In this document: positions 25,179 to 27,547 of the stretch, one piece after another
Position numbering within the stretch: the stretch's first letter is position 1
Layout of the letters: every line of letters begins with the position of its first letter
Virus record (IMG/VR): IMGVR_UViG_2585427708_000005
Length of the DNA stretch: 64,000 bases
Source: a virus
Lineage: Duplodnaviria > Heunggongvirae > Uroviricota > Caudoviricetes
Reading direction: 5' to 3' (one strand)
The notes under the pieces: generated by a model
What the model was told of the DNA's origin: nothing
What the model saw: the letters and a program-made list of their open reading frames with translations, nothing else
The model's database searches: none
Translations under genes and position numbers: made by a program

Positions 25179-26177
25179 TTATCCGTTACCGCACGACGGT
25201 TTCTGCGTGATAAACGTCTCAAGCATCTTTTCCGCAATTGCCGACCAGGTGTGACACTGGACCTTTTCAGCATTTTTCACGCGATCAACGCGAGCAATAA
25301 CCTCATCCCAATCAATCCGCGACTTGATAACCATATGGTTCACCAAAGCCAGGCGATCTGGCGGAAGGCAATCGGGAGGCGTTAATACCAACGCCCCGCA
25401 CATTGCCGCCTCAAGAACAGTTAATCCAAGGCTTTCGGGATGCGTAACGATAAAAACGTCACTCTTACGCAATTCAGCTGCAAATTCGGTTGCTGGCACC
25501 GGCGTCCGTCTGTATGGAGTTACCGAAATATTCCCCGGATCAATGGTAACCAATCCATCATCAGTCAACGTTCTGGCCTCATACGGAACGGTCAGACGCT
25601 GAAGGTTCATAAGGATACTTAAGGAGTGATCAAAACCACTAACATCAAATGCAGCGTGGTCTACAAAAATACGCAGAACATCGTCTGTTTTGGTTTCCAG
25701 ATGGAACAGATCCTGATTCGCTGCCCATCCAACATGTTTGTTAAAGCGATTATGACGCTCTAACCTGCCGGGATTATCCAGGTACCGCCAGGTATCATCG
25801 CGGACAGTAAAAGTAATATCGACTGGTGCCGAATCCAGCATAGAACCGTCGTATACCTGGGCTACCCATCCAGTGAATCGACGACGCAGTTGCACTCCTA
25901 TTTCCCTGGGCACCGTAGTAAAATACCGCAATCCTGGCGCTAAAATGGCTTTCGCAGAACACGAGGTCGCAGCGGTCAACACAGCTTCAACATAATCCTC
26001 CTGGCTTTCGACGCTGGGGGAATATGGACGATGGTATTGCAATGTTACCCCTGCCTCACTAAAGGCGCAGGCCAGGTTATAAGCCCACATTTCCGTATAT
26101 GTTTTCACATCACTGATAGCTTCAAATTTTCGCCCAATGATCAGGATGTTCATCGGCTTTTCCTCATTCCATTGCAT
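25179..26177 (-). CDS. dbn: GT-B (GT4-like) glycosyltransferase, translationally coupled to ban
   Basis: 332 aa; ESLGLTVLEAAMCGALVLTP motif typical of GT4/GT1; its start overlaps the ban stop. Confidence 0.6.
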   Translation of the reverse strand: MQWNEEKPMNILIIGRKFEAISDVKTYTEMWAYNLACAFSEAGVTLQYHRPYSPSVESQEDYVEAVLTAATSCSAKAILAPGLRYFTTVPREIGVQLRRRFTGWVAQVYDGSMLDSAPVDITFTVRDDTWRYLDNPGRLERHNRFNKHVGWAANQDLFHLETKTDDVLRIFVDHAAFDVSGFDHSLSILMNLQRLTVPYEARTLTDDGLVTIDPGNISVTPYRRTPVPATEFAAELRKSDVFIVTHPESLGLTVLEAAMCGALVLTPPDCLPPDRLALVNHMVIKSRIDWDEVIARVDRVKNAEKVQCHTWSAIAEKMLETFITQKPSCGNG

Positions 26178-27547
26178 TAATAATCCTCTTGCCAGTCAGC
26201 ACCGGCATAGTTATCAAACCGTGAGTATTGGCCGTTAAAAGCCAATCTCACCGTGCCAATTGGGCCATTTCGTTGCTTACCGATAATCACCTCGGCAATG
26301 CCCTTCATTTCGCTATCCGGGTGATAAACTTCGTCGCGATACAGAAACATGATCAGGTCTGCGTCCTGCTCAATTGCTCCTGATTCACGTAAATCTGAAT
26401 TTACCGGTCGTTTGTCCGCACGCTGTTCAAGCGATCGATTAAGTTGTGACAATGCCACCACCGGTACTTGTAATTCCTTCGCCAAAGCCTTCAGTGAGCG
26501 AGAAATCTCGGCAATTTCCAGCGTTCGGTTATCTTGCAGCTCGGGGACGCGCATAAGTTGCAGGTAGTCGATCATAATCATGCTCAAACCACCATTTTCT
26601 TTATAAACACGACGAGCGCGGGAACGAAGCTCTGTAGGTGTCAGGGCGCTTGAGTCATCAATAAAAATATTCTGCTTGTCCAACAGAATCCCCATTGCGC
26701 CAGAAACCCGCGCCCAATCCTCGTCGTTAAGTTGCCCTGTTCGAATACGAGTCTGATCAACGCGTGCAAGAGAAGCCAGTGAGCGCATCATCAGTTGGTG
26801 GCTCGGCATCTCAAGGCTAAAAACCAATACGGGCTTATCGTTACGGACTGCGGCATTTTCGACGAGATTCATCGCAAACGTAGTCTTCCCCATCGATGGG
26901 CGGGCGGCGACAATAATGAGATCGGACGCCTGAAGTCCTGCCGTCTTCTTATTGAGATCGGTAAATCCGGTATCAAGCCCCGTTACACCATCATGCGGTC
27001 GCTGAAACAACTCTTCTATGCGAGATACCGTTGCATCGAGAATGCTGGCGATATCTTTTGGACCACTACCGCTCTTTTGTCGTTTTTCAGCTATTTCAAA
27101 AACGCGGCGCTCGGCCATATCCAGCAATTCATTGCTGCCCCTGCCATCCTGCGCATATCCAGCTTCAGCTATTTCATTTGCGACGGAAATCATTTCACGA
27201 ACAACCGCGCGTTCACGAACGATATCCGCATAAGCACAAATATTTGCCGCGCTGGGCGTGTTCTTTGACATCTCCGCAAGGTACGCAAAACCACCGGCGC
27301 GTTCTAATTTACCGTTCTGTTCAAGTGCTTCAGCAAGTGTTATCAAATCAATCGGTTTGCCATGACTTAATAACCTCTCCATCTCACTGAAAATTTCACG
27401 ATGAGCACTGGTATAAAAATCATCAGCAACTATACGATCTGCAACTTCATCCCAGCGGCAGTTATCAAGCATTAAGCCACCAAGTACAGCTTGTTCTGCA
27501 CTAAGGGAATTTGGCATGGATTCAAGAGGGGATGCAGACATTAGCAC
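26177..27547 (-). CDS. ban: Replicative DNA helicase, DnaB analogue
   Basis: 456 aa, near-collinear high identity to E. coli DnaB (Walker A ARPSMGKTT and later motifs). Confidence 0.92.
   Translation of the reverse strand: MLMSASPLESMPNSLSAEQAVLGGLMLDNCRWDEVADRIVADDFYTSAHREIFSEMERLLSHGKPIDLITLAEALEQNGKLERAGGFAYLAEMSKNTPSAANICAYADIVRERAVVREMISVANEIAEAGYAQDGRGSNELLDMAERRVFEIAEKRQKSGSGPKDIASILDATVSRIEELFQRPHDGVTGLDTGFTDLNKKTAGLQASDLIIVAARPSMGKTTFAMNLVENAAVRNDKPVLVFSLEMPSHQLMMRSLASLARVDQTRIRTGQLNDEDWARVSGAMGILLDKQNIFIDDSSALTPTELRSRARRVYKENGGLSMIMIDYLQLMRVPELQDNRTLEIAEISRSLKALAKELQVPVVALSQLNRSLEQRADKRPVNSDLRESGAIEQDADLIMFLYRDEVYHPDSEMKGIAEVIIGKQRNGPIGTVRLAFNGQYSRFDNYAGADWQEDY

Follow-up and report, generated by a model that had tools for sequence, protein, structure and literature searches.

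The ban-dbn pair of a P1-like phage: Dbn as a predicted GT4-like transferase that most likely belongs to a dispersed glycan-building module

Dbn, the glycosyltransferase-like protein encoded downstream of the helicase gene ban, most likely acts as one of the enzymes in a module of four transferases that builds a glycan; the module is dispersed in the genome and non-essential. The gene pair was studied in the window, i.e. the whole 64,000-nt stretch of phage DNA that was analysed. dbn would share a transcript with ban, yet its product would not be linked to the helicase in function; the partners of Dbn would instead be PmgO, PmgP and PmgQ. As a whole, this explanation is given a probability of roughly 0.55. 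The initial annotation considered the pairing of a replicative helicase with a glycosyltransferase unexpected, but the locus is the ban-dbn pair of phage P1, an ordinary pair that is already known and had been annotated before (AF234172, P7 and RefSeq).

At this locus the window is 97.8% identical to P1 at the nucleotide level, which identifies it as a P1-like phage. P1, P7, RCS47 and SJ46 show nucleotide identities of 97.8-99%, and all of them share the arrangement gene 5, dbn, ban. Both ban and dbn are located on the minus strand according to the ORF list. The upstream gene, which had been described as DnaB-like, is indeed ban (26177..27547, minus strand, 97.8% nucleotide identity to P1 ban-dbn). 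It encodes a DnaB-family replicative helicase of 456 aa when read from a GTG; the P1 annotation ('Ban, replicative DNA helicase') uses an ATG start two codons further in. The protein contains an N-terminal DnaB domain and a C-terminal RecA-type DnaB_C domain, with full-length matches to the corresponding Pfam models (PF00772, E 2.8e-35; PF03796, E 1.1e-107). Ban is the DnaB-type helicase of this phage and the DnaB analogue of P1.

The downstream gene (dbn, long form 25179..26177, minus strand, 332 aa) encodes a predicted GT4-like glycosyltransferase with a GT-B fold, orthologous to P1 Dbn and P7 Glt. Earlier labels are 'possible glycosyltransferase' (P1, AF234172), 'glt' (P7) and 'glycosyltransferase family 4 protein' (RefSeq). 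P1 Dbn (AAQ14048, 'downstream of ban'), P7 Glt and the RCS47 'putative glycosyltransferase Dbn' represent the same gene, with 95.5-98.5% amino acid identity; the protein studied here is 96.4% identical to P1 Dbn over residues 1-332 and matches the P1 Dbn orthologue group, PHROG 2518 (phrog_2518), over its full length (E 5.4e-238). As in P1, P7 and RCS47, the gene has ban upstream, is convergent with baseplate gene 5 downstream, and belongs to an operon under the C1 operator Oban. The shorter P7 'glt' (288 aa, starting 134 nt after ban) turned out to reflect another choice of start codon only: in tblastn, residues 1-332 were aligned in a single piece (95.5%).

The operon is headed by Oban (30744..30771), a bivalent C1 repressor operator at the position of Obanab in the P1 annotation. 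There, ATTGCTCTAATAAATTT is matched with 0 and 2 mismatches, and the window contains 11 such matches in total versus 0.37 expected. At the other end, a bidirectional intrinsic terminator (25132..25160) closes the operon between dbn (minus strand) and baseplate gene 5 (plus strand); it consists of a 12-bp hairpin between A and T runs, with an RNA fold of -18.9 kcal/mol (z = -5.1 versus shuffles). The two genes make up the 3' part of this operon, which is repressed by C1. The upstream cargo of the operon differs from that of P1, with an SPFH protein in place of tciABC and an additional tRNA-Tyr. Among the genes of the operon are thereby a tRNA-Asn and a tRNA-Tyr.

The GT4-type motif that had been recognized in the 332-aa ORF is genuine. 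It is an EX7E motif (E248-x7-E256 in THPESLGLTVLEAAMCG; 25410..25436, minus strand), the nucleotide-sugar-binding signature of retaining GT4 enzymes, and lies inside the Pfam match (aa 229-315). Both Glu residues are invariant in 16 sequences with identities down to 38%. Profile searches do find the glycosyltransferase family, although marginally: Glycos_transf_1 from Pfam matches the C-terminal domain only (E 1.5e-5), and since its 25.1 bits fall just under the gathering score of 26.4, sequence profiles alone are borderline for Dbn. The NCBI name for the cluster is nonetheless 'glycosyltransferase family 4 protein'. A sequence search of PDB chains with Dbn returned noise (E 0.26 or worse), so that structure prediction was needed. 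In the AF2 model (pLDDT 87.3, pTM 0.85), two Rossmann-like domains enclose an interdomain cleft. The fold is settled as GT-B by this predicted structure, and the glycosyltransferase fold on which the initial annotation depended is thus present in the model.

Dbn resembles the retaining GT4 enzymes of GT-B fold (BshA, PimA/PimB', GlgM and sucrose-phosphate synthase, as well as WaaG/WaaB of the LPS core), with 9-16% identity to solved GT4 enzymes among the matches listed. Several of its top structural neighbours use small acceptors, namely BshA (malate), BGluT (tetrahydrobiopterin), and GlgM and sucrose-phosphate synthase (sugar phosphates). Compared with typical GT4 enzymes, Dbn is shorter (324-332 aa) and forms a small separate clade, with 376 cluster representatives at E<=1e-3 among 1.84 billion. 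In distant members of the family, the only domain fusions are to a second GT1 domain or to a methyltransferase; these are consistent with glycan building and uninformative on the target. No transmembrane segment is present in Dbn, nor in PmgO, PmgP and PmgQ, and in none of the four does the hydropathy of a 19-residue stretch exceed 1.53. Overall, Dbn is most likely a soluble, cytoplasmic, retaining GT4-type (GT-B) glycosyltransferase, its activity being predicted.

The stop codon of ban overlaps the start of the 332-aa ORF, as initially described. In the TAATG on the minus strand (26175..26179), the TAA of ban (26179..26177) shares one base with the first in-frame ATG of dbn (26177..26175), and a GAGG is found 7 nt upstream (26185..26188). 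In its strict form, the proposed translational coupling is doubtful, because the family-wide start of dbn is positioned 23 nt past the ban stop. This probable true start (26151..26165, minus strand) comprises the ATG at 26153..26151, which is Met9 of the long ORF and yields a protein of 324 aa, and its own Shine-Dalgarno sequence GAGGA 7 nt upstream (26165..26161). In the homologue alignment, all non-P1 Dbn homologues begin at the equivalent of Met9. The same start is used in 11 P1-like contigs where a 101-aa ORF is inserted between ban and dbn, and in contig L171 the overlapping upstream start reads ATG-TAA. The conserved start of dbn is therefore probably another one than the ATG that overlaps ban. 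Moreover, an overlap of 1-4 nt is not distinctive here, as overlapping neighbours are normal in P1 operons: 9 of the 15 same-strand neighbour pairs in the two regions of the P1 annotation that were examined overlap, and the others are 0-9 nt apart.

These observations bear on a reading in which Dbn is functionally coupled to the helicase, glycosylating Ban, another replisome protein or the replicating DNA, with translational coupling fixing the stoichiometry. The TAATG overlap and the co-transcription would fit such a role; they are shared by the majority of P1-like genomes (109 of 124 tabulated junctions). However, the adjacency is limited to the P1 lineage, and even there it is inconstant: besides the contigs with the inserted gene, the P1-like contig L211 contains a remnant of dbn, and the 10 kb upstream of it lack any homologue of ban. 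In other phages, no DnaB was found within 8-10 kb of any Dbn homologue, and the conserved start 23 nt past the ban stop also speaks against a coupling. Ban itself is reportedly a hexameric helicase that substitutes for DnaB, to go by the title of a 2003 study by Lemonnier et al. Furthermore, P1 is not known to have a pathway for hydroxymethyl- or hydroxy-pyrimidines, which could supply its DNA with a sugar acceptor. ban and dbn are each individually dispensable for P1 plaque formation (PMC10695390).

DNA glycosyltransferases of phages require that the phage itself synthesizes a base with a hydroxyl or hydroxymethyl group (PMC13326640). The T4 alpha-glucosyltransferase (1y6f) and the 5-hydroxycytosine glycosyltransferase of phage HY126 (9iqz/9ir0) need such a base-modifying pathway, whereas the partners of Dbn are glycosyltransferases and its relatives occur in polysaccharide clusters. 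In the two annotated P1 regions viewed, no base-hydroxylating or -hydroxymethylating enzyme was found, and structurally Dbn does not resemble DNA glycosyltransferases more closely than it does other families of GT-B fold. The adjacency of helicase and glycosyltransferase is a lineage-specific accident of gene order, and a functional coupling of the two is disfavoured as extremely improbable.

Outside P1, Dbn is found with the same three companions. Homologues of Dbn, PmgO, PmgP and PmgQ are present in each of the eight phage loci outside P1, which sequence similarity groups into six lineages; by tblastn, the four were detected together in L003, L005, L006, L007, L213 and L214, as well as in two phage isolates, EP_H11 and IME392. 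In six loci (L005, L214, L213, L007, L219 and L221) the four genes are contiguous, in an order that varies between lineages. The flanks of this cassette are unrelated and belong to a lambda-type terminase/portal/capsid region (L005/L213), a phage-plasmid (L003) or a 111-kb phage (L219). In the lambda-like contigs the cassette lies downstream of a Q antiterminator and immediately precedes the genes for terminase and head. Co-occurrence across unrelated genomes in varying order, with no other gene shared, is the pattern of a phage module; no further conserved neighbour that might hint at the acceptor was found across the non-P1 phage loci. Distant relatives at 26-27% identity (L210 and L212) still adjoin PmgQ-like and MptE-like genes. 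Glycosylation of tRNA (queuosine) by Dbn, an idea prompted by the tRNA-Asn and tRNA-Tyr of the ban operon, was rejected because no Asn or Tyr tRNA is present near any other copy of the cassette; the sole tRNA near other cassettes is a tRNA-Met(CAT), in L003 and L006.

The Dbn family is rare outside P1-like phages. Scans of IMG/VR (twice), GTDB species genomes and JGI metagenomes with family alignments returned almost only P1-like loci, for which reason the independent contexts were taken from exact-protein look-ups and from tblastn of isolate phages. Because the family is tiny, these contexts form a small sample, comprising roughly six non-P1 phage lineages, as delimited by sequence similarity, and three or four types of cellular or unclassified clusters.

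In the window, the conserved partners are encoded on the minus strand by pmgO (18583..19245), pmgP (18059..18685) and pmgQ (16687..17388). PmgO is a putative GT42/MptE-like protein, which would be similar to CMP-ulosonic-acid transferases, and corresponds to PHROG 4603 'alpha-2,3-sialyltransferase' (E 4e-74). PmgP is its paralogue (PHROG 2111) and likewise a putative relative of sialyl/Kdo-transferases. A joint profile of PmgO, PmgP and their cellular counterparts matches the sialyltransferase Cst-II (E 1.3e-6), with a GPS motif that is invariant in the alignment, and Maf (5mu5) is also among the profile matches. The P1 proteins themselves score below the threshold of the Pfam MptE-like model (23.4 bits for PmgO and 21.1 for PmgP vs 34.6) and have no direct match to the WaaZ models of NCBIfam. 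PmgQ corresponds to PHROG 1962 'glycosyltransferase' (E 1e-127) and is a GT8-like GT-A glycosyltransferase with a DxD motif; its family profile matches the GT8-type GlaT1 (6mw5, E 2.6e-5) across the invariant DxD, and its best PDB match is a protein-glycan GT8 enzyme. For Dbn and the three Pmg proteins, NCBIfam yielded no specific family and PADLOC no defence system, and no GT2 match was obtained in the Pfam scans of the ban-dbn and Pmg proteins.

It is rather likely, going by gene neighbourhoods, that dbn, pmgO, pmgP and pmgQ act in one pathway. In P1, pmgO, pmgP and pmgQ lie 6-9 kb from dbn, beyond the inverted tail/baseplate operon, and are part of a separate operon. This separation, like the small acceptors of the structural neighbours, could also mean that Dbn acts by itself, with a small soluble molecule or a protein of the host as its target (for instance in counter-defence or metabolism), and shares with PmgO, PmgP and PmgQ only its nature as 'moron' cargo. 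Such a solitary role is quite improbable: the four families recur across six non-P1 phage lineages in shuffled order, between unrelated flanks and with nothing else conserved, and the scans gave no match to defence-system models. If the P1 cassette was split by the inverted tail operon, this would explain why dbn has never been connected with pmgO, pmgP and pmgQ.

Judged by their gene content, the clusters that house the cellular relatives of Dbn are of the capsule or LPS type. In L217/L218, genes for KpsM/T-like ABC transporters, a Poly_export protein and glycosyltransferases are present, and the Dbn-like gene is preceded at a short distance by a WaaZ-like gene. The clusters of L215/L216 and L004 consist of glycosyltransferases, methyltransferases and acetyltransferases; in these, a WaaZ/MptE-like gene adjoins the dbn homologue or is located two genes upstream. 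The cellular homologues (39-52% identity) are thus found within two genes of a WaaZ/MptE-like gene, as in bacterial pairs of the capsule/LOS type that combine a WaaZ-like (Kdo III transferase-like) protein with a GT4 enzyme, and this pairing parallels the association of phage Dbn with PmgO and PmgP. In contrast to the phage cassette, the cellular clusters also contain exporters (KpsM/T-like, Poly_export) and tailoring enzymes. P1 PmgO and PmgP are far more diverged from WaaZ than the cellular partners are, with no NCBIfam match. Among the targets that the initial annotation had listed, it is the envelope sugars that agree with these contexts; the link to the helicase found no support.

The main alternative places the same four-enzyme module on the virion, where glycosylation of a head, tail or tail fibre protein would alter stability, host range or immune recognition. 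The GT4, GT8 and GT42-like families also include protein O-glycosyltransferases, and the MptE-like Maf among the PmgO/PmgP matches, together with the protein-glycan enzyme matched by PmgQ, points in this direction. The gene positions could be read likewise: pmgO, pmgP and pmgQ are found among morphogenetic genes downstream of the annotated late promoter LPpmgL (P7 label: 'head morphogenesis'), and the lambda-like cassettes precede the terminase and head genes after the Q antiterminator. However, dbn itself is part of the early, C1-controlled ban operon, and the cellular relatives occur in polysaccharide export or LPS-type clusters and not in protein-glycosylation loci. All four genes are non-essential by CRISPRi (Piya et al., PMC10695390), and a table in the same study lists them as non-essential in the knockouts of Gonzales et al. 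2022 as well. In the latter work (PMC9024508), 24 of the 29 single-gene knockouts show neither a plaquing defect nor a change in antirestriction, and in its accessible part Dbn, PmgO, PmgP and PmgQ are not named among the virion-associated proteins, glycans being outside the scope of that study. Taken together, modification of a virion protein is considered unlikely. A search of the accessible literature on dbn and pmgO/P/Q yielded nothing beyond essentiality tables and one transcriptome mention, and no report of an altered LPS phenotype in P1-infected cells.

According to the preferred reading, i.e. a four-transferase module acting on a glycan, the four enzymes would cooperate in making a short glycan, or in lengthening one, with nucleotide sugars of the host as donors. 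By analogy, PmgO and PmgP would use CMP-activated ulosonic acids, and they would be joined by the GT8-like, DxD-containing PmgQ. To our knowledge, CMP-Kdo is the only CMP-ulosonic donor available in E. coli K-12, and therefore the donors are likely CMP-Kdo and UDP-hexoses. Dbn would then add a hexose next to the ulosonic-acid residue. As a tentative guess, the acceptor may be an envelope glycolipid linked to the inner membrane, for which the LPS core, the receptor of P1, is the first candidate. Its modification would result in a remodelled surface of the infected cell.

The serotype-converting Gtr systems (GtrA/GtrB/GtrV) are comparable in that genes of temperate phages glycosylate an envelope glycan. 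These systems combine a flippase with two transferases, namely a bactoprenol glucosyltransferase of family GT2 and a glycosyltransferase that is a polytopic membrane protein, and their expression takes place in the lysogen. Dbn, PmgO, PmgP and PmgQ differ in being soluble, in belonging to other families and in their C1-repressed operons; no counterpart of the membrane-embedded GtrA, the GT2 enzyme GtrB or the polytopic Gtr is found among them. Since the operons are C1-repressed, this would not be a classical lysogenic conversion.

The observation from which this analysis started is of little weight, as it rediscovers the annotated ban-dbn pair of P1. What the genomic context adds is that four non-essential P1 genes of unknown function seem to be one conserved glycosylation module that is common to unrelated phages. 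At even odds, P1, which ranks among the most thoroughly studied phages, shares with six or more further lineages of enterobacterial phages a self-contained cassette of four glycosyltransferases (two GT42/MptE-like, one GT8-like and the GT4-like Dbn) that builds a glycan containing Kdo or another ulosonic acid from host precursors, on the LPS core or on a virion protein. Knockouts of all four P1 genes exist (Gonzales et al. 2022, according to Piya et al.), so that the target glycan could be sought directly. If the LPS core is the target, the module would represent an unrecognised route by which P1-type phages remodel their own receptor during infection.

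The ban gene (26177..27547, minus strand) encodes a 456-aa protein from a GTG start, in which Pfam matches the N-terminal domain of DnaB (E 2.8e-35) and DnaB_C (E 1.1e-107), both at full length. According to the title of a 2003 study by Lemonnier et al., the Ban protein itself is reportedly a hexameric helicase that substitutes for DnaB. Downstream of ban, on the same strand, lies dbn (25179..26177), an ORF of 332 aa. The stop/start overlap read in the initial annotation is present: the junction in gene orientation is ...GGCAAGAGGATTATTAATGCAATGGAATGAGGAAAAGCCGATGAAC..., with one base common to the ban TAA and the ATG, and a GAGG can be read 7 nt upstream of this ATG. 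A bivalent operator of the P1 repressor C1 marks the head of the ban operon (30744..30771, consensus matched with 0 and 2 mismatches). Its end is formed by a strong bidirectional terminator hairpin common to baseplate gene 5 (25132..25160; -18.9 kcal/mol, z -5.1).

The region 25100..27700 is 97.3-99.0% identical, over at least 99% of the query, to 18 Punavirus records (megablast, phage records), including P1, P7, RCS47, SJ46 and JL22. In the P1 record AF234172, ban is annotated as 'replicative DNA helicase' and dbn as 'function unknown, possible glycosyltransferase'. The dbn gene of P7 is called glt, 'putative glycosyltransferase', and the RefSeq/NCBI name for Dbn is 'glycosyltransferase family 4 protein'. 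Both the pair and the glycosyltransferase suggestion were thus already on record in P1-type annotation.

From sequence profiles alone, the assignment of Dbn as a glycosyltransferase is borderline. Pfam Glycos_transf_1 was matched at 25.1 bits, but this is below the cut-off of 26.4 and spans no more than residues 229-315; searching the PDB directly with the Dbn sequence gave no match. The GT4-type motif proposed earlier was confirmed: E248 and E256, the EX7E signature of GT4 enzymes inside THPESLGLTVLEAAMCG, are invariant across 16 aligned family members with identities as low as 38%. The AlphaFold2 model built from this alignment is confident (mean pLDDT 87.3, pTM 0.85). Foldseek returned 113 PDB matches for it at E<=1e-3; the 50 that were listed all have the GT-B fold, so that the predicted glycosyltransferase fold is present. 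Lower in this ranking are the LPS-core enzymes WaaB (16.3) and WaaG (15.1), as well as T4 DNA alpha-glucosyltransferase (16.1) and the DNA glycosyltransferase of phage HY126 (15.6). No transmembrane segment was found in Dbn. Overall, Dbn belongs with the GT4-like GT-B proteins, and its nucleotide-sugar motif is intact. Of 1.84 billion cluster representatives, an exhaustive profile search retrieved no more than 376 (E<=1e-3); the family is a small clade apart from mainstream GT4.

The initial annotation had further called the coupling of a replicative helicase to a glycosyltransferase unexpected. Four lines of evidence speak against a meaningful link. First, gene overlaps are the norm in the two P1 regions inspected: by the P1 annotation, 9 of 15 same-strand neighbour pairs overlap and the rest are 0-9 nt apart, and the ban-dbn overlap is not special. 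Second, the ATG overlapping the ban stop is probably not the conserved dbn start, judging from the homologues. All those outside P1-likes start at the equivalent of the ninth codon, Met9 (MKILIIG...), whose ATG (26153) is preceded at 7 nt by a GAGGA of its own; in one contig (L171) the overlapping start reads ATG-TAA. Third, the pairing varies within P1-likes. The sequence upstream of dbn is completely different in 11 of the 124 P1-like junctions tabulated. In the P1-like contig L083, a 101-aa ORF (9699..10004) lies between the two genes and dbn starts at Met9; here and in 10 similar loci, the inserted ORF overlaps both the ban stop and the Met9 start, which shows that the junction is a gene insertion site. 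In a P1-like metagenome contig (L211, 6815..10365), dbn is reduced to a C-terminal remnant, an 80-aa ORF, near a putative 391-aa transposase-like ORF and other foreign genes. No ban homologue was found within 10 kb upstream of this remnant, and pmgO, pmgP, ppp and pmgQ are intact. Fourth, both genes are dispensable: in the essentiality table of PMC10695390, P1 needs neither ban nor dbn according to CRISPRi, and a knockout study is cited there as finding dbn non-essential too. In that study (PMC9024508), 24 of 29 single-gene P1 knockouts had no plaquing or antirestriction defect. The coupling is a lineage-specific gene order, and DNA or the helicase is highly improbable as the target of Dbn. 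The initial annotation read the sequence correctly and guessed the fold rightly, but for a P1 pair that was already annotated.

Dmt, a DNA methyltransferase with C5 and N6 parts fused (30762..34049, minus strand), has 1095 aa versus 754 aa in P1. Its 341-aa insert (32796..33818, minus strand; CFTAGHMV...VVHN, then CQAFS) splits the catalytic GGTP|CQAFS motif; given its Hint_2 and LAGLIDADG_3 domains, it resembles an intein that carries a homing endonuclease. The same insert is found in L083. Between the tRNA genes and ban (27925..28969, minus strand), a 275-aa SPFH/Band_7 protein (Pfam E 1e-30) with a lipoprotein-like N-terminus and a 78-aa hydrophobic protein are encoded, where P1 has tciA/tciB/tciC; the ban operon thus varies in its cargo. 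The four tRNA genes of this operon, all on the minus strand, have a CAT anticodon (27822..27897; tRNA-Ile2 in the P1 annotation) or are Thr(TGT) (29843..29918), Tyr(GTA) (29923..30009) and Asn(GTT) (30015..30089); tRNA-Tyr is absent from the P1 reference annotation of this region. The window holds 11 C1-operator-like sites (17-bp consensus, at most 3 mismatches; 0.37 expected by chance), at 366, 3672, 14528, 16620, 16669, 20293, 30744, 30755, 35300, 51391 and 53061, which maps its C1 regulon. Oppp, annotated upstream of pmgN in P1, was not recovered in the window at this threshold.

Homologues of Dbn at 39-58% identity are rare, and P1-likes made up nearly everything retrieved when IMG/VR, GTDB species genomes and JGI metagenomes were scanned. 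The non-P1 contexts that were retrieved agree with one another. Every phage-type locus with a Dbn homologue also has homologues of PmgO, PmgP and PmgQ, while none of Ban was found within 8-10 kb flanks of the non-P1 phage loci (tblastn with window proteins). The order O-P-Dbn-Q is contiguous in a lambda-like element (L213) and in the isolate E. coli phages EP_H11 (L219) and IME392 (L221), of 111 and 116 kb. Two further lambda-like elements (L005 and L214; GpA terminase, Phage_portal_2, with capsid E in L005) have a contiguous O-P-x-Dbn-Q, x being a 189-aa DxD protein, and an unclassified phage contig (L007) has P-Dbn-Q-O, likewise contiguous. In the phage-plasmid-like L003 (a 95-kb Citrobacter plasmid) and L006, O-P-Q stand together with Dbn about 5 kb downstream. 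Gene order thus differs between lineages and the flanks are unrelated; no conserved fifth gene was found across the non-P1 phage loci compared. PmgO, PmgP and PmgQ are the only evolutionarily conserved companions of Dbn. The association persists at 26-27% identity: at L210 a Dbn-like gene is followed by a PmgQ-like gene, and at L212 PmgQ-like, Dbn-like and MptE-like genes are packed closely together with those for three sulfotransferases, for methyltransferases, for a GT25 and for a further DxD glycosyltransferase. In the 320-kb jumbo phages RAS14 (of Stenotrophomonas; L220 5590..7248) and CM1, part of a 552-aa hypothetical protein shares 27% identity with Dbn's C-terminal half (E 6e-19), which makes it a remote relative within the family, from phages of quite another kind.

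In the window, pmgO (18583..19245), pmgP (18059..18685) and pmgQ (16687..17388) lie on the minus strand like dbn; between them and dbn stand the tail/baseplate operon 26-25-7-24-6-5, on the plus strand, and the genes pmgL, pmgM and pmgN. PmgO matches PHROG 4603 'alpha-2,3-sialyltransferase' (E 4e-74), and its paralogue PmgP matches PHROG 2111; both have sub-threshold Pfam MptE-like matches. Aligned with cellular WaaZ-like partners, they share an invariant GPS and a G-x-D motif, and the joint profile matches the Campylobacter GT42 sialyltransferase Cst-II (E 1.3e-6) and Cst-I; its match to Maf (5mu5), a flagellin glycosyltransferase, is weak. A DxD is invariant in PmgQ (PHROG 1962 'glycosyltransferase'), and the profile of its family matches the GT8-type GlaT1 (E 2.6e-5). 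With Dbn included, the soluble glycosyltransferase-like proteins of P1 thus number four, in three folds. All four genes are listed as non-essential in the laboratory in PMC10695390. The ORFs of pmgO and pmgP share 103 nt, read in different frames (18583..18685, minus strand), as annotated in P1, whereas the overlap is about 35-50 nt for their counterparts elsewhere among phages; the true pmgP start or pmgO end may need re-examination. Two phosphatase genes on the same strand, ppp (lambda-type Ser/Thr, 17385..18077, between pmgP and pmgQ) and pap (HAD motif DIDGT, 14544..15050, about 1.6 kb downstream of pmgQ), are not conserved with the cassette in other phages.

By co-occurrence, dbn, pmgO, pmgP and pmgQ form a conserved four-transferase cassette. 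This is the sole addition beyond known annotation; no statement of dbn's membership was found in the searchable literature. The four enzymes probably act in one pathway building a short glycan. The donors of GT42/MptE/WaaZ-type enzymes are CMP-activated ulosonic acids, and E. coli K-12 is not known to have any of these other than CMP-Kdo; a Kdo-plus-hexose structure would thus be expected, in which Dbn would add a hexose with retention of configuration.

Among the targets first considered (DNA, a protein or envelope sugars), the last are favoured, because the cellular relatives of Dbn sit in capsule/LPS-type clusters. A Dbn homologue directly follows a WaaZ/MptE-like gene at L215/L216 and lies two genes downstream of one at L004, with further glycosyltransferases and a methyl- or acetyltransferase. 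At L217/L218 it lies close downstream of such a gene, and the cluster also holds a Poly_export gene and KpsM/T-like genes for an ABC transporter; this homologue carries the NCBI label of a Colwellia MAG protein. A second reason to favour an envelope glycolipid is that the enterobacterial core is built by these same three families of enzymes (WaaG/WaaB of GT4, the outer-core transferases of GT8, and WaaZ). A virion protein as acceptor is the main alternative and less likely; in its favour, the pmg genes lie among morphogenetic genes with an annotated late promoter, and the cassette adjoins head genes in lambda-like elements. With a tentative probability of about 35-40%, the acceptor would be an envelope glycolipid, most plausibly the LPS core, which is the receptor of P1.
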